From assembly GCA_023247445.1 (NCBI GenBank), contig JAHFGL010000008.1, positions 13,774 through 77,773 on the forward strand: DNA of 64,000 bases, in the 5' to 3' direction. The stretch's first letter is position 1; each line of letters opens with the position of its first letter. Origin of the DNA: Candidatus Omnitrophota bacterium. GTDB taxonomy: Bacteria; Omnitrophota; Gorgyraeia; Zapsychrales; Zapsychraceae. This document shows, in pieces, positions 37,695 to 53,590 of the stretch. The notes under the pieces are model-generated. The model was not told where the DNA came from and searched no databases. It saw nothing but the letters and a program-made list of their open reading frames with translations. The position numbers and the translations under genes were made by a program.

Positions 37695-39578
37695 ATGGAT
37701 AAAAATATGGATTCAAATTTGAATAAAGAGTATATCATTATATGCGGGGAAAATAAATTTCAAGGCTTATGGCTTTTTTTGTGGTGCTGGATAAAGAAAT
37801 GCAAGGGTTTGATTATGGATAATGGAAAGAAATCTAGTTTTGCTAGAAATTTGTTGTGGTTTCCTCCTTTCAAGAAATATATCATGGAGCAGGTAAGAGA
37901 AAATCAGGTTGGGTTAGGCCAGTATAAAGGTTTATGGTATAAAGTCAATAAAGAAGCCATTGATCTTACCATAGAATTTTATAATCAGGAAATCGCATCC
38001 AAACCAGCATTCATCGGTTACTACAACAAAATTTTGCGTACCGTTAAATTTGAAGCCTATATTAAAAAAGAAATTTCTTTTCAAATATTTTCTGTGCTTA
38101 AGGAGCTGCACCTTGTAAGGTTACAATCCTTATGTGACACTTCGATTTTAATAGCCCAAACCCCTCTTAATGAGTTTATTGTTGAATACATGTTGAAAAA
38201 TTACGGGACGAAATACCGAGTGAAATATATACGTCCGAGAATCAATCTATTTATTTTATTTTTTTATTACGGTCAATTATTAAAAGAGTTTGTCCATAGA
38301 GGGATAGCCTTTGGAAAGACAAGAAGGAAGTATAAAATTTCCAAGGAGGCTACATGGAATTTTTTTCGGGGGACATTACGGGATGATATCTTGGTCGATG
38401 GCAATCAAATTACGCAGAAGGATGTATTGCTCTTGGAAATCGATTCTGATTCTCCTCAGAGAGCCAGGTCATTTCAGGAAGCAAGAGAGAAAGGATTTGA
38501 TACGGTTTCCTTGCACAAAATTAAAATAAATATTAATAAAGATATTTATCATATCTTATATTTTTATCTATTTGTTCCTTTGATTTTGTATGTTCAATTG
38601 TTTTGGGCGCGCAGAACATATCTTTTTAATTTTATTGTTTTGTTTCATTGGAGATGCTTCCCATGGGAGGTGTTTCTTAATGCTTTTGATGTCGATTATT
38701 ATATCTCTGTTCGAGATTGGGGCGACGTGGAGGAGACAATTATTCTTAACCGCTATGATGCCAAAAGTGTCTTTTTTCAGAGAAGCGATCTCTCTTTTCC
38801 TCACTCACATCTGCACGCTTTTATTGCTCATAATCTCTATTTTATCTGGGGAGATATACATTATGATTTTCATGCGAAGAATTATTTTGTAGATAAAAAG
38901 ATTGATATCGGATGCATCTATAAAAGGGCTTGCAATCAGGCTGTCGATAAAGCGGATAGCGTGCGAAACCGCATCCCATTGTTTAACAAACAGAAAAAAA
39001 CAGTCACTTTTTTTGATAATTCGTTTCAGGATACGATCCATATTACCACGGCTTTTTTCCTGGAATTTTTGGAAATGGTCAAGAAATTCTGCCAGACCCA
39101 TAAGGACGTGAATGTACTATTTAAACCTAAAAAAGATCAAGAGGATGTCTTGCGGATGTTGGATGGCTCGGCGCGGCAGTATAACTTAATTTGGGATGGA
39201 CTTAAAGAATGTGAAAATTTCATTTATTTGGATCCGTGGGAATGGAGCATAGAGAGTGTCATTGCCATTTCCAATGTGTGTGTTAACATGGGAATCACGA
39301 GTCCTTCGACGATTGCCTTAATATGCGGCAAAAATGCTCTTTATTACGATAGCACCGGTAATAGCGAAGAGCATATATTGTTTAGAAAACACGCAGGAAC
39401 AATTGTTTTTGATAATAAGGAGGATTTGTTTCGACAGATCGATAATATTTTGGAAGGCAGATTTAATTGCCTGGATGTTTTTAGCAAAAAAGAGCTTAGA
39501 GAATATGATATATTCGATGATGACAAAGCGCTGGAGAGATTAAATACTTATTTGTCTGATGGTTTAGCCAAAAATTAA
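37695..39578 (+). CDS. Hypothetical protein, possible GT-B-like transferase with a central TM segment
   Basis: 627 aa. Hydrophobic stretch LILYVQLFW. C-terminal ISNVCVNMGITSPSTIALICGKNALYY is GT-B-like. Confidence 0.3.
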   Translation: MDKNMDSNLNKEYIIICGENKFQGLWLFLWCWIKKCKGLIMDNGKKSSFARNLLWFPPFKKYIMEQVRENQVGLGQYKGLWYKVNKEAIDLTIEFYNQEIASKPAFIGYYNKILRTVKFEAYIKKEISFQIFSVLKELHLVRLQSLCDTSILIAQTPLNEFIVEYMLKNYGTKYRVKYIRPRINLFILFFYYGQLLKEFVHRGIAFGKTRRKYKISKEATWNFFRGTLRDDILVDGNQITQKDVLLLEIDSDSPQRARSFQEAREKGFDTVSLHKIKININKDIYHILYFYLFVPLILYVQLFWARRTYLFNFIVLFHWRCFPWEVFLNAFDVDYYISVRDWGDVEETIILNRYDAKSVFFQRSDLSFPHSHLHAFIAHNLYFIWGDIHYDFHAKNYFVDKKIDIGCIYKRACNQAVDKADSVRNRIPLFNKQKKTVTFFDNSFQDTIHITTAFFLEFLEMVKKFCQTHKDVNVLFKPKKDQEDVLRMLDGSARQYNLIWDGLKECENFIYLDPWEWSIESVIAISNVCVNMGITSPSTIALICGKNALYYDSTGNSEEHILFRKHAGTIVFDNKEDLFRQIDNILEGRFNCLDVFSKKELREYDIFDDDKALERLNTYLSDGLAKN

Positions 39579-39592
39579 TAATGGGGGTTGAT

Positions 39593-39769
39593 ATGGCAGA
39601 AGAGCTATTGAAAGGAAATTTTAAAGTTAAAAATCCCGTTAAGGTAGAGAAGCAAGCAAAAAGTGAGCCAGTTCACGAACAGCTTCGTAAAAGGGCGCTT
39701 GCTTCCCTTGGTGGGAGTATGGTTTACATGGAACGAAAAAATCTCACTTGGGACGGAGAAAAAGGTTAA
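39593..39769 (+). CDS. Small Lys-rich hypothetical protein (58 aa), translationally coupled
   Basis: GGGGGTTGAT RBS before ATG 39593. Its stop TAA overlaps the ATG of the next gene (TAATG). Confidence 0.3.
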   Translation: MAEELLKGNFKVKNPVKVEKQAKSEPVHEQLRKRALASLGGSMVYMERKNLTWDGEKG

Positions 39770-40791
39770 TGCTAGATACAGCCGTAAAAGAATTTGAAAA
39801 TATTGTCGAAAAGATCCCACAGATTGGGATAAAGGTTCATGGCCAGAGGATATTAGAGCATGCCCGGTTGAACTTGCCTGATATGACTAAAACGATTAAA
39901 GATTTGCCCGTGCTTGATTCCGTAAAGGCTCGTTCGGCCGTCATTATTAGTGCTGGTCCAAGCGTCCGGCGGCAGAATTCCATCCAGCGTATCGTAGAAT
40001 CAAAATATAAAGGAACAATTATCGTCACGGACGGTTCTTATGCGGCTTCTATTAAAGCAGGTTTATTTCCGGATTTTATGCTGACCCTTGATCCTCATCC
40101 TACCAGAATGGTCCGCTGGGTTGGGGATCATGACTTTGAAAAGCACACGGCTAACGATGATTATTTTACCCGGCAGGATTTAAATATCGAATTCCGCCAG
40201 AATTCCATTCAGCAAAATGAAGAACATATTATTCTTGTTAACAAGCATGGACATTTAACCAAAGCTATTGTGGCCTCTACCGCGCCGCGTAATCTTGTGG
40301 CGCGTTTAAAAGAAGCCAAGTTTGATATGTATTGGTGGCATCCTCTCGTGGATGATCCGTACGCGCCGCAGAGCTTGACGCGCAAACTGTATGCTATAAA
40401 AAAAATTCCTTGCATGAATACGGGGGGAACCGTTGGCGTAGCGGCTTGGGTGTTCGCTAATTCTATTTTAAAAATACCAACCATTGGCCTTGTGGGCATG
40501 GACTTTGGTTACCCTGCAGAAACGCCTATTGAAAAAACTCAGACGTATTATGAGCTTATTGAACATTTAGGCGGCAAAGAAGAGCTAGAACAATGTTTTA
40601 TCGAATATGAGTTTCCATTGACGAAAGAAAAATTTTATACCGATCCGACGTATTTTTGGTACAGAAAAAATTTTTTGGAACTGTTTGCGTATTCGACGAC
40701 GAAAGCCTATAATTGCACGGAAGGGGGGACGCTCATCGACGAGCGCATCCCTTGCGTTACGTTGGAAAAATTTATCAACCACACTAAGTAA
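39769..40791 (+). CDS. MptE-like/DUF115 protein (Maf-like putative nonulosonic-acid transferase)
   Basis: AVIISAGPSV...VTDGSYAASIKAGLFPDFMLTLDPH and GGTVGVAAWVFANSILKIPTIGLVGMDFG match the MptE/Maf fold pattern. The track ORF starts at 39748. Confidence 0.5.
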   Translation: MLDTAVKEFENIVEKIPQIGIKVHGQRILEHARLNLPDMTKTIKDLPVLDSVKARSAVIISAGPSVRRQNSIQRIVESKYKGTIIVTDGSYAASIKAGLFPDFMLTLDPHPTRMVRWVGDHDFEKHTANDDYFTRQDLNIEFRQNSIQQNEEHIILVNKHGHLTKAIVASTAPRNLVARLKEAKFDMYWWHPLVDDPYAPQSLTRKLYAIKKIPCMNTGGTVGVAAWVFANSILKIPTIGLVGMDFGYPAETPIEKTQTYYELIEHLGGKEELEQCFIEYEFPLTKEKFYTDPTYFWYRKNFLELFAYSTTKAYNCTEGGTLIDERIPCVTLEKFINHTK

Positions 40792-40811
40792 AAAGACCAA
40801 AGGGAGAGGAA

Positions 40812-42392
40812 ATGGCCAAAATTTTAATGATCAATCCAGTTATTCGGGAAGAAAGCGCCCCCCAGAATATTCCCTATGGGCTTACTCTCTTAGCTGGTAT
40901 CGCCTTAGAAAAAGGTCATCAAGTCCAATTTTATGATGAAAATGCTTGGCGTAAAGGGGATAAAGTCATCGCTGAGGTCTGTAAAGCTGACGATTGGGAT
41001 GTGATCGCTATCGGCGGTCTGACAACGACGTATGGATCGATAAAAAAGATTTTGAGGATTGTAAAAGAGGTCTCACCGAAATCATTTATTATTGCTGGCG
41101 GAGGTATTATCACCAGCATGCCCAAAGAGATTATGGCATGGTTAAAGGACATCGATCTGGGAATTATCGGTGAGGCTTTTGTTACCTGGCCGGAGGTTTT
41201 AGCTAAGATTGACGATAAAGATTTTGATTTTTCTAAAACCCTTGGTGTCTGTTATCGCGATAAAGAAGGAAATCCGATTCTAACAAACGTTCGTCCAAAT
41301 ATCAAAGATTTGGATGTCCTTCCGTATCCCGCTTGGGATTTGTTGCCGCTGGAAATTTATTTTAAAAATTCCCAGAACCTGTTAAGTGAAGCCGCTTTCA
41401 TGGCTAAAAGACGCATTGATGTCATGGGAAGTCTGGGATGCAGTCTCATCTGCAAATTCTGTTGGCATTTAGGAACAACAGGAGATATGCTTGTTGAGGA
41501 AAATGAGGCAGGCATTAAAGATGTCCGGTTTACCTATGGACGTAATATCCGTTATTTCAGTCCTCGATACATTGTCGACATGGTTAAAATTCTTGTGAAG
41601 AAGTACAATGTTGACCATGCTTATTTTGTTGATGAGAATTTTATGACCATGGATGTTGCCAGCGGCCGCACGTGGCTGAAGGAACTTAGTGATTTATGGA
41701 TCAAGGAGGGATTGCAGCCCACATCGCGCAGGGATGGTGTGCCTGATGACCAGAATAAGGGGGGTGTTTTTTGGTCAGGGACCAGTCATGCCAGTTTGGC
41801 CCAGAAAGAAACTTTGGATAAAATGTATCAGGCGGGTTGCTCGTCATTAGTCTACGGCATTGAGTCATTCGATCCAGTTATCCTCAAGAACCTAGGAAAG
41901 GGTGTCACCCAAAAACATAATCTAGAGGCGCCTAGAATATGTATGGAATCGGGTATTATCCCTGTTCCCAATATTATGATTGGTTTTCCGCAGGAGACAT
42001 TTTTCAGTATACGCACCACTATTGAATGCATGATAAAGCTAGGGATTCATGCCAAACCTCATTTCGCCACACCCTATCCGGGATCAGAATGGTACTATAC
42101 TTATAAAGACAGTATTCTTGAACAATATAATGGTGATCTTGAAGCTTTTATTGAAGATTTAGGGGACGCCTCGAAAATCACGGCTGTTATTTCCCATAAT
42201 TTTTCTCCAGCACAATTGTTAGGATTGCAGATGATTGTCATGCAGCGAAATTTACGCCTATTAGACCAAACAGAAAAACAATGGGCGGCAGCTAATGCGC
42301 TTATGAAACCGCTGGCTGTTCCAAAGGGATCATTTCATATGGTAAACAAGAAAATCCAAGCACCCATAGAAGAGGCCTCCAGGGCGCTATAA
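40812..42392 (+). CDS. B12-binding radical SAM enzyme
   Basis: N-terminal B12-binding-like domain, LGCSLICKFCWH cluster motif. 526 aa. Confidence 0.7.
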   Translation: MAKILMINPVIREESAPQNIPYGLTLLAGIALEKGHQVQFYDENAWRKGDKVIAEVCKADDWDVIAIGGLTTTYGSIKKILRIVKEVSPKSFIIAGGGIITSMPKEIMAWLKDIDLGIIGEAFVTWPEVLAKIDDKDFDFSKTLGVCYRDKEGNPILTNVRPNIKDLDVLPYPAWDLLPLEIYFKNSQNLLSEAAFMAKRRIDVMGSLGCSLICKFCWHLGTTGDMLVEENEAGIKDVRFTYGRNIRYFSPRYIVDMVKILVKKYNVDHAYFVDENFMTMDVASGRTWLKELSDLWIKEGLQPTSRRDGVPDDQNKGGVFWSGTSHASLAQKETLDKMYQAGCSSLVYGIESFDPVILKNLGKGVTQKHNLEAPRICMESGIIPVPNIMIGFPQETFFSIRTTIECMIKLGIHAKPHFATPYPGSEWYYTYKDSILEQYNGDLEAFIEDLGDASKITAVISHNFSPAQLLGLQMIVMQRNLRLLDQTEKQWAAANALMKPLAVPKGSFHMVNKKIQAPIEEASRAL

Positions 42393-42408
42393 TATTCATT
42401 TATTTGTT

Positions 42409-43131
42409 ATGTATGAATCTCTAAAAATTTTATCTTTTATCGGGGCCAGGGTCGGGTCTAAAGGACTGAAAAATAAAAATATTCTTGATCTTGCAGGTAA
42501 ACCCTTGATCGCGTGGACAATTGAAGCTTCCCGATGCTCAAAATATATCGACCGCACCATCGTCTCAACTGATGGCAAGCAGATTGCCGAGATCGCCAAG
42601 CAGGCGGGAGCGGATGTGCCATTTTTGCGTCCCACGGAATTAGCAACGGATGAATCTCTGCTTGATGAGGCGATGCAACATTGCGTCCAATGGCTGGCCA
42701 ACAACGAGCATCGTGTTTATGATTATATTTTGCTTCTTCAGCCGACTTCACCATTAAGAACGGCAGAACACATTGATCAAGCCGTGGAATATTATTTTAA
42801 AAATAAAAAGACACGACAGGATATTCTGATATCCGTTACAAGGGCCCCGAAAAAGGTGGGATGGTTAATGCAGCAGAATCAGTCTGGATATATCGGCTTT
42901 TGCTTTGATGACTCTCAACGAGGTTCGCGGCGCCAAGATTTGCCCGAGTATTATTTTCCTAACGGCGTTATTTATTTGGGGCTAACAACGGTAATGCAGC
43001 ATTTGAGCAAGAATGTTTCCCGCCTGCTGCCATTTATGATGGAAAGCGAAGTTTCCATAGACATTGACTCAAAAAAAGATTTGCAAGAAGCCATGAAAAT
43101 TTTGAGAAATCGGATTGGAATCAATGTATGA
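42409..43131 (+). CDS. Cytidylyltransferase, CTP_transf_3 family (NeuA/PseF/LegF-like)
   Basis: ILSFIGARVGSKGLKNKN. 240 aa. Confidence 0.7.
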   Translation: MYESLKILSFIGARVGSKGLKNKNILDLAGKPLIAWTIEASRCSKYIDRTIVSTDGKQIAEIAKQAGADVPFLRPTELATDESLLDEAMQHCVQWLANNEHRVYDYILLLQPTSPLRTAEHIDQAVEYYFKNKKTRQDILISVTRAPKKVGWLMQQNQSGYIGFCFDDSQRGSRRQDLPEYYFPNGVIYLGLTTVMQHLSKNVSRLLPFMMESEVSIDIDSKKDLQEAMKILRNRIGINV

Positions 43132-43940
43132 ATGTTCTCGGAGAAAAAACTATAACTTCGTATAATATCAGGAAAATAATTCTTGAACAATCAAAGCGTG
43201 CTAATGTTGGTCATATTGGCTCGGCTTTATCTATCGTAGATATTATAGCTGTTTTATATGAGAATATTCTTAGTATTGCTTATCCCGAGGATCTTGAACG
43301 AGATCGTTTTGTTTTATCTAAAGGCCATGCGGCTTTAGCCCTTTACGCGGCTTTTTTTTTAAAAGGATGGTTAACACAAAAAGAGCTGGATAGTTATTGC
43401 GCAGATGGTGGTTGTTTAGGAGTTCATCCAGAGCATTTTCTAAAAGGGGTTGATTTTTCTACCGGCTCCCTTGGGCAGGGTTTGTCGATGGGAGCCGGAG
43501 CCGCTTTAGCGGCCTCTATTAAAAAGAGTTCCTACCGCACGTTTGTCTTGATGAGTGATGCCGAATGCAATGAAGGATCTGTATGGGAGGCTATTATGTT
43601 CGCTGCACAACATAAATTATCTAATCTTATTGTTATCATCGATTACAATCGGCAACAGGCGTTTGGGTACACGAAAGATGTTCTAAATCTTGATCCTTTA
43701 AATAAACGCTGGGAGGCCTTTGGCTGGGATGTACGGCAGGTGGATGGGCATGATGTTTCTGAAATCATGCGAACGATACAAGGGCTCTCTTTGCAAAGTG
43801 GATCGCCCCATGTCATTATTGCTAATACAATTTTTGGTAAAGGGGTTTCCTATATGGAAAATAAAATTAAATGGCATTATTGGCCGATGTCTGATCAGGA
43901 GTATCAATTAGCTTTACAAGAGATCAAGGCTGTAAAATGA
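43128..43940 (+). CDS. Transketolase N-terminal subunit (second copy)
   Basis: FSTGSLGQGLSMGAGAA and DAECNEGSVWEA. 270 aa. Confidence 0.8.
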   Translation: MNVLGEKTITSYNIRKIILEQSKRANVGHIGSALSIVDIIAVLYENILSIAYPEDLERDRFVLSKGHAALALYAAFFLKGWLTQKELDSYCADGGCLGVHPEHFLKGVDFSTGSLGQGLSMGAGAALAASIKKSSYRTFVLMSDAECNEGSVWEAIMFAAQHKLSNLIVIIDYNRQQAFGYTKDVLNLDPLNKRWEAFGWDVRQVDGHDVSEIMRTIQGLSLQSGSPHVIIANTIFGKGVSYMENKIKWHYWPMSDQEYQLALQEIKAVK

Positions 43941-44899
43941 GAAACATATTTATTGAGACATTGATTAAATTGGCCGAAAAAGATAACCGTATTTTATTGT
44001 TAACCGCTGATTTAGGTTATACGGTTATTGAACCTTTCGCAGAGAAGTTCCCACAAAGGTTTTTCAATGTTGGGGTCGCTGAACAAAATATGGTTGGGAT
44101 GTCTACCGGCTTAGCGCAAGCAGGTTTTATTCCGTTTTTGTATTCTATCAATAATTTTGTTTCTATCCGGCCATATGAATTTATTCGTAACGGTCCTATT
44201 CTCCATCAGTTGCCGGTGCGCATCATTGGAGTAGGCGGAGGGTTTGATTACGGATCAGCAGGTGTTACTCATTATGGTTTGGAGGATATTGGTCTTATGC
44301 GTCTTCAAAAAGGCATCGGTGTCGTTGTCCCAGCTGACCGTAATCAGACACAGGCAGCACTTTTAAAAACATGGGATTTACCGGGACCGGTATATTATCG
44401 GCTTGGTAAAGGCAATAAAAATTCTATTGATGGTCTTAATGGAAGGTTTGATTTTGGGGGTCTTCAGCATATCCGCCAGGGAAATGATTTTGTTTTTATT
44501 TCTATAGGGAGTATCACGCAAGAAGTTGTCAGTGCAGCGGATCAACTAGAACAAAAAGGCATTTCGGCTTCGATCGTTGTTGTGTCCAGTTTTAATCCTT
44601 CGCCAACGACGGATTTGATTAAAATTCTTAAAAAATTTCCGTTAGCCATTACAGTAGAGGATCATTATGTGACTGGCGGAGTCGGCTCTTTTGTTGCCGA
44701 AGTAGTTGCCGAAAATAACATCTCTTGCCAGATTAAACGCTGTGCAGTCGATACGCTTATTCCCAATGTGACAGGCAGCAGGGAATTTATGAATAGTCAC
44801 TATGGTATCTCAGCAGCGAAATTGGTCGAAATAGCCTGGCATTGTTTAAGAAATGATAAATTCACATTAAGTAAGGCTGATCTTTTTTTAGAGAAATGA
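43937..44899 (+). CDS. Transketolase C-terminal subunit (second copy)
   Basis: VGVAEQNMVGMSTGLA. 320 aa. Confidence 0.8.
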   Translation: MRNIFIETLIKLAEKDNRILLLTADLGYTVIEPFAEKFPQRFFNVGVAEQNMVGMSTGLAQAGFIPFLYSINNFVSIRPYEFIRNGPILHQLPVRIIGVGGGFDYGSAGVTHYGLEDIGLMRLQKGIGVVVPADRNQTQAALLKTWDLPGPVYYRLGKGNKNSIDGLNGRFDFGGLQHIRQGNDFVFISIGSITQEVVSAADQLEQKGISASIVVVSSFNPSPTTDLIKILKKFPLAITVEDHYVTGGVGSFVAEVVAENNISCQIKRCAVDTLIPNVTGSREFMNSHYGISAAKLVEIAWHCLRNDKFTLSKADLFLEK

Positions 44900-45618
44900 A
44901 AGAATCTTTTGTCTCGATTATACTTCCAGTATATAATCAGGCTGACCACATAAGTGCCGTGATTGAGTGCTACAAAAATGCCCTCTCAAAAATCGCCGTA
45001 CCTAATGAAATGCTTTTGGTTGTTAACGGGTGTCGTGATAATTCCTTAGAGATTTGCCAAAATCTACAAAAAAAATATGACGCCTTAAAAGTTATTCATA
45101 GTGAGAAGGGTGGCTGGGGCCGTGCCATTAAATTAGGGTTAAAAGAGGCTCAAGGTGACTTTATTTGTTATACTAATTCGGCCCGCACATCGGCTGCAGA
45201 ACTTCGGCAGGCCATACTCTATGCCTTAGATAATCCTAATGGAGTGATCAAAGCTAACCGAAAAATCCGGTATAACCTTATGAGGATGCTCGGATCTTAT
45301 TTATTCAATTTTCAATGTCGTTTTCTGTTCGATTTAACCGTTTGGGATATAAACGGTACGCCAAAAGTTTTTCCCCGCAAGTTTGATTATTTGTGCAGAC
45401 TCTCCCGTAACGATGATTTGATAGACCTTGAATTTAATTTTATTTGTAAAATGAAAAATTATCCCATGCTGGAAGTACCCATTTTTTCTTCCAAGCGCCA
45501 TGATGGACGTTCCACAACAGGATGGCATTCTGCTTTAGGAATGTATATGGGGGCTCTAGTCATGTGGCGTGCTAGCCGAAAAGGTCTTAAAGAATATGAA
45601 AGGACACTTGACGAATAA
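44896..45618 (+). CDS. Family 2 glycosyltransferase (GT-A)
   Basis: VSIILPVYNQADHI. 240 aa. Confidence 0.7.
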   Translation: MKESFVSIILPVYNQADHISAVIECYKNALSKIAVPNEMLLVVNGCRDNSLEICQNLQKKYDALKVIHSEKGGWGRAIKLGLKEAQGDFICYTNSARTSAAELRQAILYALDNPNGVIKANRKIRYNLMRMLGSYLFNFQCRFLFDLTVWDINGTPKVFPRKFDYLCRLSRNDDLIDLEFNFICKMKNYPMLEVPIFSSKRHDGRSTTGWHSALGMYMGALVMWRASRKGLKEYERTLDE

Positions 45619-46789
45619 AGAGCAAATGTGGGCTCAACATAACGAGGAATGGCGCGATCCTGCGCAGATTATCAGTCAATGGGAAGATGCCCATCAGTTA
45701 GATCGGAGGTTGCTGGATTATAACATCAAAGGTCAATGGTGGGCTATTTTAAATAGATTGAAGATATATCTTCTGGTCTCCCGCGAATATGAACATTTGA
45801 TGCTGGCAATAGGTGCTAAGGCGCATGGTCCAGAAATATCTTACATGCGCATACCACATCCTTCTGGCATTGTGGTTAATCACAGAAGAGATTTAATTTA
45901 TATTGCCAGCACACGCAACCCCAACCAAATTTTTGAGATGGGGTTAAGTAAGGGACTTGCTGATAGAAAAGATATTCTCAGAAAAAGGACACGGAAGCCA
46001 ATCGGATATAATGTCATGGTCCCTTTAAGGACTTTCTTTTATCCAGGAAGTTTATATATTCATGACCTTGCCATCATTGGGAATAATCTGTACGCTAACG
46101 CTGTTGGACACAATGCGGTTGTTCGGCTTTCTTTATCTTTCGATGGAAGATATGAATATGTGTGGTGGCCAGTATGTATGGAAAATGGAAAAGGCCCCAT
46201 TACTGAAGCGAATTATATTCAATTGAATTCTATTGCTGCGGGACAAACGATTCAAGATTCTTTTTTTTCGGCTTCGGCGGATTCTATCTCTCAGCGTAGA
46301 CCAGGGCATATAAATTTTCCCGTGAACAAGCGGGGTGTCGTATTTTCGGGAAAAACGCGTAAACCTATCTGTTATGGGCTGACTCGGCCGCATTCAGCGC
46401 GCTGCTATGACGGGAAAATATGGGTTGATAACAGCGGTTACGGAGAATTTGGATACATCGAAAAAGAAAAATTTGTGTCTATCGTATCACTTCCGGGTTG
46501 GACACGGGGTCTTTATATAGAGGGGGGAGTTGCCTTTGTCGGTGCCTCGAAAGTGATTCCGCGATTTTACCGCTATGCCCCGGGACTTGATATTGCCAGG
46601 AGTCGCTGTGGAATATATGCCATAGAGTTAAAGACAGGGAAGATTTTGGGGAGTATACAATGGCCGCATGGGAATCAAATCTTTGCTGTTGAAGGGATTT
46701 CAGATAGATTTTGCCATGGGTTCGTCCATCAGTATTTGTCCTGCAGATCTTCTGTGCAAATAAAAAATTTATTTTATGCGTTCAAATAA
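45596..46789 (+). CDS. Hypothetical protein, possibly beta-propeller-like
   Basis: 397 aa. Repeated G-x-hydrophobic strand-like segments. Start ATG 45596, in frame with the track GTG at 45569. Confidence 0.3.
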   Translation: MKGHLTNKEQMWAQHNEEWRDPAQIISQWEDAHQLDRRLLDYNIKGQWWAILNRLKIYLLVSREYEHLMLAIGAKAHGPEISYMRIPHPSGIVVNHRRDLIYIASTRNPNQIFEMGLSKGLADRKDILRKRTRKPIGYNVMVPLRTFFYPGSLYIHDLAIIGNNLYANAVGHNAVVRLSLSFDGRYEYVWWPVCMENGKGPITEANYIQLNSIAAGQTIQDSFFSASADSISQRRPGHINFPVNKRGVVFSGKTRKPICYGLTRPHSARCYDGKIWVDNSGYGEFGYIEKEKFVSIVSLPGWTRGLYIEGGVAFVGASKVIPRFYRYAPGLDIARSRCGIYAIELKTGKILGSIQWPHGNQIFAVEGISDRFCHGFVHQYLSCRSSVQIKNLFYAFK

Positions 46790-46800
46790 AGGAGTGATAG

Positions 46801-47727
46801 ATGACTGAAAAATTTAAACTTCTCATGTTAGGGGCTATGTACGAAAACGGAGGTAACACAACACATCGATTTTTGGATGGACATCCTGAAATGTTTGTTT
46901 ATCCATTCGAATCCCAGCTCGGGACGCGGTTTGTTATTGACAGTTTATCTTCTTTGTTTCCATTAAAATACCGCTGGCCAGTTTTTCCGCTGGAAGGGAG
47001 TCCCTATGAAGATTATAAGTTGATTATCGATGAAGAAGGAAAAGTCCGCACGCGCACTGCGCATGTGAGTAAATTCCGTCATATGCCATTCGAGTTATCT
47101 GATGATGAGCGCTGCTTGATATATCAAAAATATATCCAGCGTCTGGGACGCTCACGCGCGCACAATGTACAAGCATTTTTTCAAAGTATTTTTGATGCCT
47201 GGAAAAATTATAAACGGACCGGGAAAGAAAAATTTTATGTTGGGTATAGTCCCATTTTAGTCGTTGACGCCGGGAAGATTCTGGAGGAATTGCCCGGAGC
47301 GCATTTTCTTCATGTCGTACGTAATCCCTGGTCAGCTTATGCCGATACCAAAAAAAGACCTGTTCCTTTGTCTTTAGAAAACTATATTTTCTGTTGGAAT
47401 ATAAATCAGTATTTCGCTTTACTCTGCCAAAAAAAATACCCTCGTCGCATGCATATCCTACGTTTGGAAGATATATTGCAAAATCCTTACAAAGAGCTGG
47501 GGACGTTATGTGAGAAATTAGGCCTCAAAAAAAGCAATTCTTTAGAAATTCCCAGTTGGAATGGCCAAGAATTAGAAGAAATTTATCCATGGGGAACCAT
47601 CCGTAAGGCGACGCCGAAAGCTAATAAGGAAACAGCGAGGGAGCTCTCTAAAGAAGAACAGCAAGAAATTCGGGAAAGGACATGGCAGTATCTTAAAGAA
47701 TACCGCTATGATAAATTTTTGGCCTAA
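46801..47727 (+). CDS. Putative sulfotransferase
   Basis: LGAMYENGGNTTH is a PAPS 5'-phosphate (PSB) loop-like motif, and HVVRNPWSAYAD is RNP-type 3'-PB-like. 308 aa. Confidence 0.4.
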   Translation: MTEKFKLLMLGAMYENGGNTTHRFLDGHPEMFVYPFESQLGTRFVIDSLSSLFPLKYRWPVFPLEGSPYEDYKLIIDEEGKVRTRTAHVSKFRHMPFELSDDERCLIYQKYIQRLGRSRAHNVQAFFQSIFDAWKNYKRTGKEKFYVGYSPILVVDAGKILEELPGAHFLHVVRNPWSAYADTKKRPVPLSLENYIFCWNINQYFALLCQKKYPRRMHILRLEDILQNPYKELGTLCEKLGLKKSNSLEIPSWNGQELEEIYPWGTIRKATPKANKETARELSKEEQQEIRERTWQYLKEYRYDKFLA

Positions 47728-47742
47728 AAATAAGGCTGACTT

Positions 47743-48726
47743 ATGAAAAAAATTGTGTTAACCGGCGGGACAGGATTCATCGGGGCTAATTTGGCACGAC
47801 GCCTTTTGCGTGATGGACATCAAGTCCATCTCTTTGTGCGTAAAGGATGCCAAAATTGGCGCATCGATGAAATTCGCAAGGATATTGTTTTATATGAATT
47901 GGACTTTAATGATCAAGTCCAGTTAGAGAAAACTCTCAAACAAGTCAGCCCGAATTGGATATTTCATTTAGCCGCTTACGGGGCCTATTCGGTGCAAGAT
48001 AATTTGCGCCAGATGATAAGTACGAATATCCTTGCAACGGTCAATTTAGTAGAAGCCGCTTTAAAAATTGGATTTCAAGCGTTCATCAATATCGGTTCAT
48101 CATCCGAATACGGCTGGAAAGATTATCCCCCAACGGAAACGGAATGGTTAGATCCCAATAGTCATTATGCATTAACCAAGGCTAGCTCGACGATGTTTTG
48201 CCGATACACAGCTATAGCTAGGAAGGCCAATATAATAACGCTTCGCCCCTATGCTGTATTTGGTCCTTATGAAGATTTTGGTCGATTTATGCCGACTCTT
48301 ATTGTTAAAGCTTTGGATGGTTATTTGCCGCATTTGGTAAATCCACGCGTCGCCCGTGATTTTCTTTATGTGGATGATTTTGTGGAAGCTTGTATCTTGG
48401 CCGCGACCCATATCAATCAAGAGCCCGGTTCTATTTATAATTGCGGCACAGGAATTCAAACAACTATTCAAGAGGTTGTTGAATTAGCCAAGCGCTTACT
48501 GCCTATTATCGATGAACCAAAGTGGGGATCTATGGAAAACAGAATTTGGGATACGCAAGTCTGGGTCAGCGACACTCAGCGAATACAAGAAGTTTTAGGT
48601 TGGCGCCCGCGTTATAATTTAGAGGAAGGATTTAAATGTATGATTTCTTGGTTTAGGGATAATCCATCATTTTTGAAGATTTATAAAAACATTATTAGCC
48701 CCGAAAGGATCCAGCAAGAAGCATGA
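47743..48726 (+). CDS. NAD-dependent epimerase/dehydratase (SDR)
   Basis: IVLTGGTGFIGANLARRLL. 327 aa. Confidence 0.8.
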   Translation: MKKIVLTGGTGFIGANLARRLLRDGHQVHLFVRKGCQNWRIDEIRKDIVLYELDFNDQVQLEKTLKQVSPNWIFHLAAYGAYSVQDNLRQMISTNILATVNLVEAALKIGFQAFINIGSSSEYGWKDYPPTETEWLDPNSHYALTKASSTMFCRYTAIARKANIITLRPYAVFGPYEDFGRFMPTLIVKALDGYLPHLVNPRVARDFLYVDDFVEACILAATHINQEPGSIYNCGTGIQTTIQEVVELAKRLLPIIDEPKWGSMENRIWDTQVWVSDTQRIQEVLGWRPRYNLEEGFKCMISWFRDNPSFLKIYKNIISPERIQQEA

Positions 48727-50948
48727 AAGATTTAAAGACATTTATTCGGCAAAAATTTTCGCCTTTAACATGGGTTGGTTTAATTATTATCGGCTATGCT
48801 GTCCTCTTTTTCCGCAATGTTATGCAACCGAATTGGGTATTTGTCGGTGACACGCTCAATAATTTTGGTGTCTATTATTATCAATATGCGGGATTTGCCA
48901 GGGGTGAATATCCGCTATGGAATCCACTGGTCAGATCCGGCCAGCCGGAGATCATCCATCAAGGTATGCAGTTGGCAAATCCCATTTCTAATATGGTGAT
49001 GCTTATTTCTGTTTTAAGTGGAATTCAAAGCATAATTTTTTCTTACGCCATCTGCATCTTTGTTTATATTGCACTCTATGTCTCAGGGGTTTATTTGCTG
49101 GTTTCCTGCTGGACGAATAACCGTTATGCCGGGGTTTTTGCGTCTTTTTTAGCGATAGGTTCTTCCACGGTTTTCTATGGTACGTACCACGTGTCCTTTA
49201 TTCTTATGGTTCATGCGGTCCCATGGATATTTTACTCTTTTATGATGTATTTTCGAACGTTTCGATTTAAATATTTACTTATTTTTATTTTAGCGAGCAT
49301 CTCGATGTTATATTCCTATGAATTTTTTCTGGGGGGCGCATATATTCTAATGCTTTCAGTCGCGCTAATGTTTTTTTATTATAAAAAACTACCAGGTGTT
49401 GTTGACACATTTAAAAAAATTCCACTTCGGCATATAGTGATTGCGGCGGGTATTTTGGTTATCGCCATACTTCCCAATTTAATTATATTTACGCAGCTAA
49501 GAGAGAAATTTCTGGTTTTTTCAAGGTTAAGCAATGTTAATCTAACGGAACAATACACCTTAACGTTCCAGAATTTGTTTCATGGCAGACATTTTTCATT
49601 CCCGATTATTTTCTCCGGATTTTGGGCGTCGCTATTTACCGGGGTCTTTAGAAATACTTTTGAATCTCTGCGGCATTACGTTGGGCCTTTAACTTTTCCT
49701 TTCATTCTTCTCGCGTTATTCTCTAAAAAAAAAATTGTCTGGTGCCTAGTCTTATCGGGGATTCTTATTGCGATGCTGGCCGGAAATATTTTTCCCGCTA
49801 ATCTTCTTCTAGAACTACCCATTTTTTCTCTTATAGGCAATGCCCATTTTTTGTTACAATTTTTTGTTCTCGTTTTAATTGTTATTGCTGGTTTTGGTTT
49901 TGATGTCCTGATTCAGGAAAAGGATAAAAAGGTATTTAACGCCGCTTCTATCTTGTTAATCCTTATATCATTTATAATACTCTTTTCACGATTTGTTTCT
50001 TCTCCTTATAATGATGGGATTTTATGGATAACAATTGTATCAATTTTAGGAAGTCTTTTGCTTGTCAATTTTTGTCCATCAAGATTTTTTATCCATTCTT
50101 TTTTTGCTTTAGCCTTTATAACTACTTTGCTATCGGTGTTTTGGATTTTTCATCTGCCGATGTCGGGCTATATAAGCCGTAACCCTTCAACGGCTATTGT
50201 TTCCAACCGTTCGGATTATTCTCTGCAATTCCAATACGAAAGACCGCGGGATATCGAAACGATTAAACTATCCAATGAATCCGCATCTTTTGGATACGAC
50301 GAATTTTCTTCTTATGTAACTTTAAAAGATAATTCGTATAAAACAGCAAAAGGAGTTGAGGGGGGGCTTTCCACTTACCCGGTCATGCAATCCTATTATT
50401 TGTTTTTATTTCTGCCATGGCATGAAGGAATCATGAGTAAAAAATTTTTCTTTTTCCCACGGTCCTATATCTCCGATAACCCAAAACAGATGATCGCATT
50501 CCGGGATGTCCGTGTTCTTTCTGCCATGCTTGCTCAAGGCATAGGAATCGTCGATAAACTTAAGAATACAGATATTTCTCTTGGGCCTTTTTATCCGGAA
50601 TCTGCTGCAGGTTTGGTCAATAAGACTTTTGAAAACAAGTGGGATGTTCATGTAACCGAATATAAGGCAAATAGTCTGCGGGCTAGTGTGTCTATAAAAC
50701 AGCCTGGTCTATTTATGTATACAGACCTTTGGGATAATGGGTGGAGAGTGCGTGTGGATGGAAAAGAAGCGCCTTTGAGAAAAGTCTTTCATACATTTAA
50801 GGGTGTTGAACTGCCGGTGGGAATTCATGAAATTTTATTTTATTACAACAATCAACTTTTCTTTTTTATTATGCTTATGAATGCCACTTTCATTTTGTGT
50901 GTTTTATTGCTAATCTTTAATAGAAGAGGGCTGGAAGCAATTTCTTAA
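48723..50948 (+). CDS. Polytopic membrane protein with a C-terminal extracytoplasmic domain (YfhO/GT-C-like)
   Basis: 741 aa. At least 12 hydrophobic helices in the first ~470 aa, then a soluble domain. GEYPLWNPLVRSGQPE near the N-terminus. Confidence 0.4.
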   Translation: MKDLKTFIRQKFSPLTWVGLIIIGYAVLFFRNVMQPNWVFVGDTLNNFGVYYYQYAGFARGEYPLWNPLVRSGQPEIIHQGMQLANPISNMVMLISVLSGIQSIIFSYAICIFVYIALYVSGVYLLVSCWTNNRYAGVFASFLAIGSSTVFYGTYHVSFILMVHAVPWIFYSFMMYFRTFRFKYLLIFILASISMLYSYEFFLGGAYILMLSVALMFFYYKKLPGVVDTFKKIPLRHIVIAAGILVIAILPNLIIFTQLREKFLVFSRLSNVNLTEQYTLTFQNLFHGRHFSFPIIFSGFWASLFTGVFRNTFESLRHYVGPLTFPFILLALFSKKKIVWCLVLSGILIAMLAGNIFPANLLLELPIFSLIGNAHFLLQFFVLVLIVIAGFGFDVLIQEKDKKVFNAASILLILISFIILFSRFVSSPYNDGILWITIVSILGSLLLVNFCPSRFFIHSFFALAFITTLLSVFWIFHLPMSGYISRNPSTAIVSNRSDYSLQFQYERPRDIETIKLSNESASFGYDEFSSYVTLKDNSYKTAKGVEGGLSTYPVMQSYYLFLFLPWHEGIMSKKFFFFPRSYISDNPKQMIAFRDVRVLSAMLAQGIGIVDKLKNTDISLGPFYPESAAGLVNKTFENKWDVHVTEYKANSLRASVSIKQPGLFMYTDLWDNGWRVRVDGKEAPLRKVFHTFKGVELPVGIHEILFYYNNQLFFFIMLMNATFILCVLLLIFNRRGLEAIS

Positions 50949-51064
50949 CGAAGCACAAATTTTATATGAAAAGAATATTAGTCGCTGGTGGTTGCAGATT
51001 TTAGGTTCAAGAAAGCCAGGGGTTAAAGGTCATTTAATATTTCCATTAATATTTCAATTATTCC

Positions 51065-51093
51065 TTGACAATACTTTTGGGCACGAGTATAGT
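51065..51093 (+). promoter_or_regulatory. Sigma70-like promoter: TTGACA, 17-nt spacer, TATAGT
   Basis: Consensus -35 at 51065-51070 and -10 at 51088-51093, in the only >150-nt intergenic gap, about 40 nt upstream of the AAGGAG RBS of the 51135 gene. Confidence 0.4.
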
Positions 51094-51134
51094 ACATCTT
51101 ATATTTAATAAAAAATTTTAAAAGATAAAGGAGA

Positions 51135-52769
51135 TTGATGTTACTAATTAATCCTTGTCAAGAAAAATTCGGCGGTTTTCTCTCTCGTTATATGCAAGTC
51201 GGCATCCCAGTTGCCATAGGTATTATATGCGCCTACATGGAAAAATATGGTGTTAAAACTAAGGTTTTTGATGAGGAAATTGCAGAACTTACTCCTTCTA
51301 TCTTGAATGATCTTGTCAAAGATATGGAAAAGCCTTATGTTTTCGGCTTTACCTGTATGACCGCCCATGTTGTACGTGGTTATCAATTGACTAAAATGTT
51401 AAAAACACTTTATCCGGATTGCTATGTGATTGCCGGAGGTCTCCAGGCAACCGCTTTACCGGAAGAACCATTATCTTACGGGGTCGATTTTGTTATCCGC
51501 GGCGAAGGTGAAGAGGTCTTATTGCAGCTGTACAGGGCTATACGCGGTGATAAAGATTACACTCAGATTAAGGGGATCACCTACATGCCGGATGGTAAAG
51601 TTGTCCATAATTGTGATGCCCCGCTTATTCCTGATCTTAATTCAATTCCCATATTTCCTTACCAATATTTTGAGCACCCTAAATATGACAGAGGATTTAT
51701 GGTTTCTTCACGAGGCTGTCCATACCGCTGTAATTACTGCAGTATCCGCATGATGAATGGAACAACATACCGTTTTCTTTCTCCCGAACGTATTGTTACC
51801 GAACTGGATATTTTGATTAACAAATATGGTCAGAAACAGGTCGTGTTTTATGATGATAATTTTTGTTTCAAAAAACGTCGTGTCAAGGAAGTCTGTGATG
51901 CGATCATTAAAGCAGACCTGCATAAAAAATGCGCCTTTTCAATCCAGACCCGCGCAGACAATTTCTATCCTGATGTTGTTCCCATGATGGCTGAAGCCGG
52001 ATTTAAACATGCGGGATTTGGGATGGAAACAGGTATTGACCGGTTGCATCATATTATTAACAAAGAAGAAACCGTCCAGCAGCACCGCGATGCCGTCAAT
52101 CTGGCTAAAAAATACGGCATGACAACTGCTCTTTTTATGATTTTCGGCTTGCCAACAGAAACTCACGAAGATCGTAGGGAATCATTTAAGATCGTTGACT
52201 CCATGGGAACAACGGAATCTAAATATAATAATTTGATTCCTTATCCAGGAACACCAATGTATAAAACTTTAAGCACTAACGATCGGATTCATATTCAACC
52301 GGCTTGGGCAAATTTTATCAGTACTCTCTCGATAACGCGCAGTATTTTTGATAAGACGCCGCTTCCTTATGTTCCTGATTCAGCTTCAGAATGGGAACTT
52401 AAACGAGATATTATTTTATTTAATTTAAAAACATATTTTACTCCGCGAGTTATGTTCAGCATAGTAACCGGTAAAAAGGGGATGGGATGGACGAAGTTGC
52501 CTGCTCGTTGGTACTTGAATCCCGTGGAGCTTTATCATCTAACGAAAACCGTTTTTGCATTAATGACCAATTTGATTATTGCCGTTTTGCCTTTGTGGAT
52601 AACCGAACCTATTATGTGTGCGTTTAATCCTGTTTTAAGAAGACGTCAACGCATTCCTAATGCGCCCAAAGAAGCAGAAATTGAAGGTTGGGACGCTGTT
52701 TCCGCAGTACGTTACCGTCCTGGTCCTGTTACTCAAGTCAAAGAAAAGTCTCAACCTGCCTTAACTTAG
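51135..52769 (+). CDS. B12-binding radical SAM enzyme
   Basis: B12-binding-like N-terminal domain, RGCPYRCNYCSI cluster motif. 544 aa. Confidence 0.7.
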   Translation: MMLLINPCQEKFGGFLSRYMQVGIPVAIGIICAYMEKYGVKTKVFDEEIAELTPSILNDLVKDMEKPYVFGFTCMTAHVVRGYQLTKMLKTLYPDCYVIAGGLQATALPEEPLSYGVDFVIRGEGEEVLLQLYRAIRGDKDYTQIKGITYMPDGKVVHNCDAPLIPDLNSIPIFPYQYFEHPKYDRGFMVSSRGCPYRCNYCSIRMMNGTTYRFLSPERIVTELDILINKYGQKQVVFYDDNFCFKKRRVKEVCDAIIKADLHKKCAFSIQTRADNFYPDVVPMMAEAGFKHAGFGMETGIDRLHHIINKEETVQQHRDAVNLAKKYGMTTALFMIFGLPTETHEDRRESFKIVDSMGTTESKYNNLIPYPGTPMYKTLSTNDRIHIQPAWANFISTLSITRSIFDKTPLPYVPDSASEWELKRDIILFNLKTYFTPRVMFSIVTGKKGMGWTKLPARWYLNPVELYHLTKTVFALMTNLIIAVLPLWITEPIMCAFNPVLRRRQRIPNAPKEAEIEGWDAVSAVRYRPGPVTQVKEKSQPALT

Positions 52770-52816
52770 TTAATTAGAATTCCGAAAAATATCTTATTAA
52801 ATGGAGGTCACCTTGT

Positions 52817-53590
52817 ATGAAAGTCGTTATTCTCTGCGGCGGGCAGGGTATGCGGTTAAGGGAAGAAACAGAAGTTAGACCTAAGCCAATGATCTCTATC
52901 GGGGGCATGCCTGTTTTATGGCACATCATGAAGACATATGCCTATTATGGATTTAAGGATTTCATTCTTTGTCTGGGGTATAAAGGAGAAGCCATTAAGG
53001 AATATTTTTATAACTATGAAATGTTATCCAATAATTTTACGATTGAACTTGGCACCAAAAATATTGAATTTTACCCAAAGCATGATGAAAATGGTTGGAG
53101 AGTAACTTTAGTGGACACGGGGCTTCAAGCGATGACAGGCGCCCGGGTTAAGAGAATAGAAAAATTCATCGATTCAGATATCTTTATGCTCACTTACGGC
53201 GATGGTGTCACAGACTTAAACATTAATACTTTGGTGAAATTTCATCAAGCGCATGGGAAAATTGGAACAGTGACGGGAGTATTCCCGCAATCGCGTTATG
53301 GTGAGCTTTCCATTCAGGACGATCATATCTTAGCCTTTGACGAGAAGCCAGTTAACCATAAAAATTTTATCAGCGGCGGCTACTTTGTCTTTAACAAAAG
53401 ATTTTTTAATTATCTCAAGGGTGATGATTCCTGTATCCTCGAACAGGAAGCAGTGCAAAAATTGGCTGCTGAGGGACAACTGAAAGTTTTTGCTCATAAC
53501 GGATTCTGGCAATGCATGGATACCTATCGGGATTATGTTTACTTACAGGACTTGTGGGAGAAAGGTAATCCTTCATGGAAAAAATGGTAA
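52817..53590 (+). CDS. rfbF: Glucose-1-phosphate cytidylyltransferase
   Basis: MKVVILCGGQGMRLREETEVRPKPMISIGGMPVLWHIM matches RfbF/DdhA. 257 aa. GGAGGT RBS. Confidence 0.85.
   Translation: MKVVILCGGQGMRLREETEVRPKPMISIGGMPVLWHIMKTYAYYGFKDFILCLGYKGEAIKEYFYNYEMLSNNFTIELGTKNIEFYPKHDENGWRVTLVDTGLQAMTGARVKRIEKFIDSDIFMLTYGDGVTDLNINTLVKFHQAHGKIGTVTGVFPQSRYGELSIQDDHILAFDEKPVNHKNFISGGYFVFNKRFFNYLKGDDSCILEQEAVQKLAAEGQLKVFAHNGFWQCMDTYRDYVYLQDLWEKGNPSWKKW

Follow-up and report, generated by a model that had tools for sequence, protein, structure and literature searches.

A split transketolase-like enzyme with replaced acceptor residues in an Omnitrophota glycan island and its candidate role in sugar branching

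Active-site residues and relatives of the second split transketolase-like pair

What does a transketolase do inside a glycan island, and does it work with the nucleotide-sugar gene that precedes it? These questions are raised by a 64,000-nucleotide stretch of contig JAHFGL010000008.1 (positions 13,774 to 77,773) from a Candidatus Omnitrophota bacterium. This stretch, here referred to as the window, is one long same-strand run of glycan-biosynthesis genes and contains two gene pairs for split transketolase (TK)-like enzymes. The pair of interest, at 43128-44899 (TK#2, orthogroup G2), lies between a cytidylyltransferase gene and a gene for a glycosyltransferase family 2 (GT2)-fold protein; the first pair lies at 17528-19299 (TK#1, orthogroup G1). 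The initial annotation had recognized 43128-44899 as a second split transketolase-like pair, and this was borne out by the open reading frame (ORF) positions and Pfam domains. TK-N#2 (43128-43940, + strand, 270 amino acids) matches Transketolase_N (2e-43), and TK-C#2 (43937-44899, + strand, 320 amino acids) matches Transket_pyr and Transketolase_C (1.3e-27 and 4.6e-19, respectively). Their best solved relatives are, for TK-N#2, the N-chain of the Carboxydothermus hydrogenoformans split TK (6YAK, E = 1.8e-59) and, for TK-C#2, 6YAJ (E = 9.3e-51). Together, these matches show that 43128-44899 encodes both subunits of a predicted thiamine diphosphate (ThDP) enzyme with the split-transketolase fold. 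The only Pfam matches of TK#2 are Transketolase_N, DXP_synthase_N, E1_dh, Transket_pyr, and Transketolase_C, with no YerE-type TPP_enzyme_N/M/C fold. Homologs of TK-N#2 at E ≤ 1e-20 number more than 7,900; the top 120 listed are 64 to 82% identical, and the phyla among the listed homologs include Omnitrophota, Acidobacteriota, Cyanobacteria, Chloroflexota, Nitrospirota, and others.

We aligned 24 TK#2 orthologs, 6 TK#1 orthologs, and 111 other split TKs against the solved relative (6YAJ/6YAK). Positions H461, D469, and R520 were mapped using the 6YAJ alignment together with what we take to be the E. coli numbering of the motif HDSIGLGEDGPTH. The ThDP- and metal-binding residues D155 and N185 (GDG...N motif) are invariant in all 24 TK#2 orthologs, and the cofactor-activating glutamate, E411, is present in 23 of them, with one gap. 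The catalytic and donor histidines H26, H66, H100, H261, and H473 are invariant as well, and H26, H66, D155, N185, H261, E411, and H473 are also kept across TK#1 and the other aligned split TKs. Donor binding in TK has been assigned to H66, H100, G114, and H473 (PMC7661550). In contrast, the residues on the acceptor side are replaced: H461 is glycine and R520 is lysine in 24 of 24 TK#2 orthologs, and D469 is alanine or asparagine in 22 of 24. TK#2 also has tyrosine or histidine for Q474, alanine for I189, and leucine or phenylalanine for D190. S385 is threonine, and among R358, S385, H461, D469, and R520 only R358 is retained. TK#2 thus lacks the canonical acceptor/phosphate residues (H461, D469, and R520) of EC 2.2.1.1. 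According to one study, mutations at S385, D469, and R520 shifted E. coli TK away from phosphorylated acceptors (PMC5073344). Against the fused 627-amino-acid NCBIfam model NF004559, TK-N#2 scores 252.6 bits and TK-C#2 scores 180 bits; the cut-off is 488, and the sum is also below it.

The alignment shows that TK#2 keeps the predicted cofactor-binding and donor-activating residues and has lost the sugar-phosphate acceptor residues. Because the donor residues are intact and the acceptor/phosphate residues are replaced, we infer that TK#2 is probably an active ThDP enzyme that has retained a ketol donor and acts on a different acceptor. This supports the initial suggestion that TK#2 is something other than an ordinary pentose-phosphate transketolase. 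The comparison with the C. hydrogenoformans split TK, which is biochemically active, illustrates the point. Its ThDP, metal, and donor residues are identical to those of TK#2, whereas it carries the canonical H461, D469, Q474, R520, I189, and D190 where TK#2 has G, A, Y, K, A, and F.

Of the 111 other split TKs, only about 25 have the canonical combination of H461 and D469. In a neighbor-joining tree of the concatenated subunits, built without support values, the canonical split TKs form one clade (24 of 25 leaves). When this tree is rooted on the canonical clade, 21 TK#2 orthologs group in a clade free of other sequences, with only the sequence from locus L101 outside, and the sister of the TK#2 clade contains the TK#1 clade; with midpoint rooting, the TK#2 orthogroup as initially defined is not monophyletic. 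His100 is invariant in G2 and G1 and present in 83 of 87 other non-canonical sequences. With every window protein serving as a probe, we then scored the neighbors of each pair up to a distance of 8 kb. None of 18 canonical split-TK loci had any glycan-probe neighbor, whereas at least two were present at 38 of 63 non-canonical loci. The leading neighbors of the non-canonical TKs were DegT (30), RfbG, a CDP-glucose 4,6-dehydratase (18), and RfbF (17). At least 22 other loci have rfbF and/or rfbG beside the TK pair, mostly in the order rfbF-rfbG-(DegT)-SDR-TKN-TKC, where SDR is a short-chain dehydrogenase/reductase; examples are L151, with five contiguous genes, Bradyrhizobium diazoefficiens (L017), Sphingobium agri (L018), and a Bacteroidales genome (L044). 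An SDR related to that encoded at 47743 in the window lies directly upstream of TK-N at 16 of 87 non-canonical loci and at 0 of 23 canonical loci. TK#2 therefore belongs to a large non-canonical clade that is sited in glycan gene clusters, unlike the canonical relatives of the C. hydrogenoformans enzyme, which form their own clade and have no glycan neighbors. In the literature on nonulosonic acid, polysaccharide, capsule, and CDP-glucose contexts, we found no characterized glycan-cluster TK; a paper on Actinoplanes wps-2 lists TK domains and no more, and one on Cobetia covers metabolic TK only.

TK#1 (17528-18334 and 18334-19299, + strand, assigned by Pfam) is a sister-clade paralog in a different module. 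Its subunits are 48% (TK-N) and 32% (TK-C) identical to those of TK#2, and it has G, L, and K at positions 461, 469, and 520. The TK#1 module (11015-19299, with a further part at 4487-5107) comprises an HldE-like kinase/nucleotidyltransferase, a GmhA-like SIS protein, an SDR, DegT aminotransferases, an unannotated 234-amino-acid protein, an APH-type kinase, and the two TK#1 subunits. The order HldE-like, SIS, SDR, 234-amino-acid protein, APH kinase, TKN1, TKC1 is kept in six unrelated loci (L021, L023, L041, L047, L114, and L118), a pattern suggestive of a heptose-derived pathway in which a non-canonical TK also takes part. On the metagenomic contig L102 (9965-17500), a TK#2 module and a TK#1 module (APH, TKN1, and TKC1) stand side by side in convergent orientation; both modules are also present in the window.

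The neighboring cytidylyltransferase and a 9.7-kb insertion

The gene that precedes TK#2 (42409-43131, + strand, 240 amino acids; CTP_transf_3, Pfam 3.6e-27) had been described as a cytidine monophosphate (CMP)-sugar synthetase, and this assignment holds. Its best solved relative is the CMP-NeuAc synthetase 6ifd (E = 1.7e-41, residues 6-232), it scores 132 bits against the PseF model, under the cut-off of 205.7, and by homology it is a NeuA-like CMP-nonulosonate synthetase. The initial annotation had gone further, suggesting that the genes from 42409 to 44896 are one functional unit on account of their serial overlap and that TK#2 could make a two-carbon-extended ulosonic acid before CMP activation. 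The overlaps are as described, with a 4-nucleotide ATGA overlap at each of the three junctions across 42409-45618. We compared this arrangement with 30 TK#2-ortholog loci, defined by TK-N#2 orthologs at least 53% identical, many on short contigs; the locus samples come from among the matches listed, the best 600 per scan. A homolog of 42409 was found at 0 of these 30 loci.

Among the matches listed, the named sequences nearest to 42409 and to TK-N come from Omnitrophota. Orthologs of the cytidylyltransferase were found at three loci, with 72 to 73% identity at L167 and L168 and 60% at L169. All three share the gene order MptE/Maf-like gene, B12-binding radical S-adenosylmethionine (SAM) gene, cytidylyltransferase, and none has a TK downstream; L169 additionally has NeuB and NeuC. 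At L167 and L168, the cytidylyltransferase is followed directly by rfbF, with a 4-nucleotide overlap, and then by rfbG, after which come genes for RmlC-like, SDR, GT2, Wzy-like, SDR, and nucleotidyltransferase proteins, the same series as in the window at 52817-60273. By blastn, L167 2614-7662 aligns to window 38013-43070 with 74% identity and L167 7724-12252 aligns to window 52815-57321 with 71% identity, and window 43131-52815 has no L167 counterpart. Because the L167 and L168 cytidylyltransferase genes run straight into rfbF-rfbG without an intervening segment, the window region of about 43128-52800 is, relative to these islands, a 9.7-kb insertion between the cytidylyltransferase and rfbF. 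The inserted segment encodes TK-N#2, TK-C#2, the GT2-like protein, a DUF4915 protein, a sulfotransferase, an SDR, a YfhO-like protein with 12 predicted transmembrane (TM) segments, and a B12-binding radical SAM enzyme. On its right flank lie the window rfbF and rfbG genes (52817-54708, + strand), which match TIGR02623 (glucose-1-phosphate cytidylyltransferase; 335.9 bits, cut-off 300.25) and TIGR02622 (CDP-glucose 4,6-dehydratase; 460.7 bits, cut-off 278.45), respectively. Their products are 82 to 84% (RfbF) and 72 to 76% (RfbG) identical to those of the genes that directly follow the cytidylyltransferase at L167 and L168.

TK#2 and the cytidylyltransferase are adjacent by accident, as a result of this insertion, and the proposed pairing of the two is not supported. 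The constant partners of 42409 are the Maf-like gene and the B12-binding radical SAM gene (L167 to L169), and 42409 probably serves the nonulosonic-acid genes of the island, not the TK#2 pathway. The cytidylyltransferase type that recurs beside such TKs elsewhere is RfbF of the CDP-hexose pathway, not a CMP-ulosonate synthetase. With no transketolase beside the 42409 orthologs, the idea of a two-carbon-extended ulosonic acid finds no support. What survives of the four-gene unit is the association of the TK pair with the GT2 gene, seen at 12 of the 30 ortholog loci; the cytidylyltransferase drops out of it.

We also considered the 4-nucleotide overlaps themselves as evidence of a four-gene unit and rejected them. 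Of the 55 pairs of neighboring ORFs in the window, 30 overlap (by exactly 4 nucleotides in 9 cases), and the gap is 20 nucleotides or less at 47. Because overlap is so usual here, it is no sign of a special four-gene unit, and the cytidylyltransferase overlaps rfbF in the same manner at L167 and L168. An overlap of 4 nucleotides can come about in an island of this kind where a cassette joins its flank, and it is no ground for assuming functional coupling.

The window carries a nonulosonic/ulosonic acid toolkit at 25515-31874, 1490-2287, and 37695-40791. It includes a NeuB with an SAF domain, a NeuC-like 2-epimerase, a HAD phosphatase, a second NeuB without SAF, a weak CTP_transf_3 match, a KdsB-like cytidylyltransferase, a PFTS-motif protein, and a Maf/MptE-like protein, and it is consistent with decoration of protein (flagellin-type) or polysaccharide with nonulosonates. 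The radical SAM enzyme encoded at 40812 accompanies the Maf-like gene and the NeuA-like cytidylyltransferase as a conserved partner at L167 to L169.

Recurrent partners in the TK#2 cassette

At the 30 TK#2-ortholog loci, the partners found were the SDR (18 loci), GT2 (12), DUF4915 (9), and the sulfotransferase (8). Two cassette variants were seen. Variant A, the window type, consists of TKN, TKC, a 240-amino-acid GT2, DUF4915, Sulfotransfer_3, and SDR; variant B consists of TKN, TKC, a 322-amino-acid GT2, a methyltransferase, SDR, and two proteins with 10 to 11 TM segments. The core that recurs across phyla comprises TK-N, TK-C, a GT2-fold gene, and a predicted NADPH-type SDR.

The most constant partner of TK#2 is the extended, NADP(H)-type SDR encoded at 47743-48726 (+ strand; Pfam Epimerase, 7.7e-48), whose homologs at these loci are 35 to 55% identical. 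Its best match in the PDB is the T. maritima 4-epimerase 4zrm (1e-36), followed by the GDP-6-deoxy-D-lyxo-4-hexulose reductase 2pk3 (6.6e-26), and it reached no NCBIfam cut-off. The orthogroup carries the motif G(S/T)SSEYG, in which SSEYG is invariant. Strand beta2 is followed by an arginine or lysine in 13 of 14 sequences of this orthogroup, as it is in 12 of the 16 SDRs that adjoin a TK at other loci. In SDRs, a basic residue at this place usually distinguishes NADP(H) reductases from epimerases and dehydratases that retain NAD+, and we propose that the 47743 SDR is a ketoreductase. The Ser-Glu pair also made it a candidate for an acceptor-making 4,6-dehydratase or decarboxylase, a role that was down-weighted by the conserved NADP-type arginine.

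The GT2-fold protein encoded directly after TK-C#2 (44896-45618, + strand, 240 amino acids; Glycos_transf_2, Pfam 4.3e-15) has orthologs 54 to 59% identical after TK-C at L001, L005, L008, L091, L093, L095, and L105. Its PDB matches are weak (3bcv, 4e-8; ArnC, 4e-5, residues 6-206). The stretch YTNSART aligns with LLDGDLQ, the DxD stretch of the GtrB-type GT2 of L003; across ten GT2 orthologs, N, A, R, and T of this stretch are invariant, and c, y, t, and s reach at least 80%. The protein also has NG in place of the usual acidic DD/ND. No hydrophobic segment or TM helix was found in its 240 amino acids, so that, with neither a DxD motif nor C-terminal TM helices, it shows neither hallmark of GtrB/ArnC. 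The variant-B GT2 of L003, by comparison, matches GtrB (5ekp, 5.4e-69) and ArnC (1.5e-38) and has two C-terminal TM segments.

The next gene (45596-46789, + strand) encodes a DUF4915/TIGR03032 protein (Pfam DUF4915, 1.5e-48). This family has 2,905 homologs, and orthologs 47 to 54% identical occur in variant-A cassettes. The AlphaFold2 model is a six-bladed beta-propeller (pLDDT 86.2, pTM 0.88); a Foldseek search against the PDB returned only generic YWTD/WD40 propellers at a TM-score of about 0.5, with no functional lead, and we found no literature on DUF4915/TIGR03032. The family has the invariant polar motifs REYEH, PHPSG, TRNPN, TRPHS, SGYG, WTRGL, and YAPGL, and the protein looks like an enzyme. 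It is followed by a Sulfotransfer_3-family protein (46801-47727, + strand; Pfam 2.4e-9), a putative O-sulfotransferase dependent on 3'-phosphoadenosine 5'-phosphosulfate (PAPS), in which a PAPS-loop-like GGNTT and a VVRNPW motif can be read. Its orthologs in G2 cassettes across phyla are 56 to 72% identical. Because Sulfotransfer_3 homologs 38 to 46% identical adjoin the rfbF-rfbG-SDR-TKN-TKC operons of L017, L038, L109, and L126, the link between sulfotransferase and TK reaches past the TK#2 orthogroup.

Downstream of the SDR lies a polytopic membrane protein with weak YfhO/GT-C likeness (48723-50948, + strand; Pfam YfhO, 1.1e-8). It has 12 hydrophobic segments, and its YfhO match (34.4 bits, cut-off 28.5) covers the C-terminal 76 residues only. 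L005 has a Pfam YfhO protein, and L003 has the two proteins with 10 to 11 TM segments. The 48723 gene is probably the last of the TK transcription unit. It is followed by a 186-nucleotide gap (50949-51134). The strongest sigma70-like match in the region that we scanned lies in this gap (TTGACA-17-TATAGT, 51065-51093), although the promoter/terminator scan of 39000-55500 gave chance-level counts overall (49 versus 43.3 ± 7.1 and 19 versus 15.6 ± 4.1). This site may start a separate transcript for rfbF/rfbG and for the B12-binding radical SAM gene that precedes them (51135-52769, + strand; Pfam Radical_SAM, 8.7e-25, and B12-binding, 8.5e-13). The latter is not a recurrent neighbor in other G2 loci, and its link to TK is uncertain.

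The island has four radical SAM enzymes in all, three B12-binding and one SPASM (19277-20386, 26599-28644, 40812-42392, and 51135-52769), which hint at C-methylation or other radical tailoring of sugars. A carbamoyltransferase (Carbam_trans_N/C) at 33827-35650 suggests O-carbamoylated sugars.

A possible sugar-branching route and competing explanations

We propose, tentatively and at a little short of even chances, that TK#2 is a ThDP carboligase that adds a hydroxyacetyl branch to a nucleoside diphosphate (NDP)-linked keto-sugar, which would then be reduced by the SDR, transferred, and sulfated. Donor, acceptor, step order, and final product are all deduced from the gene content and residues described above. 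In this scheme, an alpha2-beta2 TK#2 would take a ketol donor, either a ketose phosphate or hydroxypyruvate; because His100 is kept, the unit transferred would be glycolaldehyde and not acetaldehyde. Its addition to the carbonyl of a nucleotide-linked keto-sugar would give a C-(hydroxyacetyl)-branched sugar. The simplest acceptor available in the window would be CDP-4-keto-6-deoxy-D-glucose from RfbF/RfbG, encoded just downstream, and the right flank of the insertion is thus a possible source of a CDP-4-keto-6-deoxyhexose acceptor. The 47743 SDR, with NADPH, could reduce the side-chain ketone to a 1,2-dihydroxyethyl branch, in parallel to YerE/YerF. The GT2-fold protein and the large membrane protein might pass the sugar to a surface glycan, and the sulfotransferase would O-sulfate it, with the methyltransferase decorating it in variant B.

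Parts of this scheme have counterparts in known or proposed systems. YerE and then YerF carry out ThDP-dependent branching and NAD(P)H reduction of CDP-4-keto-3,6-dideoxyglucose (PMC9306805). In the yersiniose A (YerE/YerF) and erwiniose (ErwE/ErwF) pathways, the 4-keto group of a CDP-deoxyhexose is branched and the product reduced with NAD(P)H, and the operons carry rfbF/rfbG-type genes (PMC9306805). The same gene logic (rfbF, rfbG, ThDP enzyme, reductase) is matched at the at least 22 TK-pair loci described above, which is a resemblance of pathway and not of ancestry. YerE is a member of the decarboxylase superfamily and acts on pyruvate or longer 2-keto acids, whereas TK#2 has the split transketolase fold and His100. 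Nearer in enzyme type are the split-gene TKs of the miharamycin and amipurimycin pathways, for which transfer of a hydroxyacetyl group to a keto sugar has been proposed (PMC12247030). Like TK#2, each is a split TK in a sugar-tailoring cluster beside an oxidoreductase, a likeness drawn from their description and not from sequence, and the proposed transfer of glycolaldehyde to a sugar ketone is the chemistry we suggest for TK#2 (PMC12247030). The settings differ: theirs are Streptomyces nucleoside-antibiotic clusters, whereas TK#2 lies in a cell-surface glycan island of an uncultured bacterium, and its relatives, unlike the Mih/Apm enzymes, occur in many phyla with a sulfotransferase, DUF4915, and a GtrB-type or DxD-less GT2 as partners. 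A candidate ketone-forming neighbor of the TK#2 group is rfbG, which stands just outside the insertion in the window, is in the operon at the at least 22 related loci, and is missing from most G2 loci. A 2025 review lists 13 further candidates, all in Streptomycetes (PMC12247030).

Several observations weigh against this proposal. The G2 cassette contains no obvious keto-sugar-forming enzyme, and at most G2 loci no rfbF/rfbG was found within 10 kb. Because L167 and L168 have rfbF/rfbG without a TK, the adjacency of TK#2 and rfbF/rfbG in the window may itself be incidental. R358 is kept and position 520 is lysine in TK#2, so a phosphorylated or otherwise anionic acceptor is still conceivable. 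Lacking DxD, the 44896 protein may not be a conventional nucleotide-sugar glycosyltransferase, and the 48723 membrane protein shows no sequence conservation in other G2 loci. Branching by the Streptomyces split TKs has not been shown in vitro (PMC12247030). The context evidence has bounds of its own, since the tree carries no support values, the 8-kb survey saw only neighbors resembling window proteins, and the loci were sampled from the best 600 matches per scan.

An alternative is an Arn-like route on a lipid carrier, or chain extension. Here the SDR would make a keto- or aldehyde sugar from a UDP- or polyprenyl-phosphate sugar, the TK would extend or branch it, and a GtrB/ArnC-type GT2 and a GT-C enzyme would deliver it outside the cell. 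The cassette is without a nucleotidyltransferase or dehydratase, the SDR has the Ser-Glu pair (SSSEYG) found in decarboxylases and dehydratases, and the likeness to GtrB/ArnC plus GT-C (YfhO, ArnT) systems is clear in variant B, where a true GtrB/ArnC homolog is followed by two large polytopic proteins with 10 to 11 TM segments; the window has its weakly YfhO-like protein with 12 TM segments. However, the basic residue of the SDR is of the NADPH-reductase type and not the aspartate of NAD+-retaining oxidizing SDRs, the window GT2 is without TM helices and DxD, no flippase was identified, and the relatives at the at least 22 other loci sit in CDP-hexose operons with their own dehydratase. We know of no Gtr or Arn system with a ThDP enzyme, and we consider this route unlikely.

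It is less probable still that TK#2 is a housekeeping-type transketolase that supplies sedoheptulose 7-phosphate, xylulose 5-phosphate, and erythrose 4-phosphate as precursors for the glycan island. The full transketolase catalytic set is retained, R358 is kept and position 520 is still basic, the best NCBIfam matches are transketolase models, and the island also makes heptose-type sugars. Yet replacement of H461 and D469 is universal or nearly so among the orthologs, the subunit scores of 252.6 and 180 bits compare with a full-length cut-off of 488, and the canonical split TKs fall in a separate clade without glycan neighbors. A TK#2 ortholog also occurs in the cyanobacterium Spirulina sp., which needs a standard TK for the Calvin cycle.

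A pyruvate donor seems to us equally improbable. AviB1/AviB2 of avilamycin and Plm8/Plm9 of paulomycin biosynthesis are alpha/beta heterotetramers resembling pyruvate dehydrogenase (PDH) E1 that attach a two-carbon unit to a sugar, with an E1_dh alpha subunit and pyruvate as the presumed donor. If TK#2 worked in the manner of these enzymes or of 1-deoxy-D-xylulose-5-phosphate synthase (DXS), an acetyl or 1-hydroxyethyl branch would result, as in yersiniose-type sugars. TK-C#2 matches DXS strongly (TIGR00204, 1.8e-38; DXS structures, about 6e-25), both subunits have weak matches to E1 components, the Transket_pyr plus Transketolase_C beta subunit is shared with the AviB and Plm enzymes, and the characterized sugar-branching ThDP enzymes all use 2-keto acids. 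On the other hand, TK-N#2 matches Transketolase_N at 2e-43 and E1_dh only weakly, at 3.4e-7, whereas the alpha subunit of the AviB and Plm enzymes is of the E1_dh family. Moreover, DXS carries Phe at position 100, and pyruvate use by TK requires mutation of H100 (PMC7661550), the residue found throughout G2 and G1 and in nearly all of the other non-canonical sequences.

Finally, the two-carbon extension of an ulosonic precursor by the TK pair, acting with 42409 and the GT2, ahead of CMP activation is very improbable: the 4-nucleotide overlaps, the genuine NeuA-like CMP-nonulosonate synthetase at 42409, and the two NeuB genes and NeuC-like gene of the island speak for it, but the adjacency came from an insertion, with the L167/L168 cytidylyltransferase overlapping rfbF, the TK#2-ortholog loci are devoid of 42409 homologs, the 42409 orthologs travel with Maf-like and B12-binding radical SAM genes, and gene overlap is the rule in the island.

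The residue signature described here separates glycan-linked split transketolases from metabolic ones, and those linked to glycans are numerous and occur in many phyla. Returning to the proposed hydroxyacetyl transfer by TK#2, a broader version is possible, which we hold with more reserve: that non-canonical split TKs are cross-phylum sugar carboligases that place hydroxyacetyl or dihydroxyethyl branches on the nucleotide keto-sugars of surface glycans, with the side chain sulfated or methylated in the case of TK#2. ThDP-dependent sugar branching has been demonstrated only for YerE-type lyases, and the transketolase type has been proposed for about a dozen Streptomyces clusters (PMC12247030). 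If true, this would take ketone-accepting transketolase chemistry beyond Streptomyces secondary metabolism for the first time, and it would imply an undescribed class of C2-branched, sulfated bacterial sugars. It would also offer a new route to tertiary-alcohol, C2-branched sugars of relevance to biocatalysis and would help in reading O-antigen and capsule clusters, in which such genes are now annotated plainly as transketolase.

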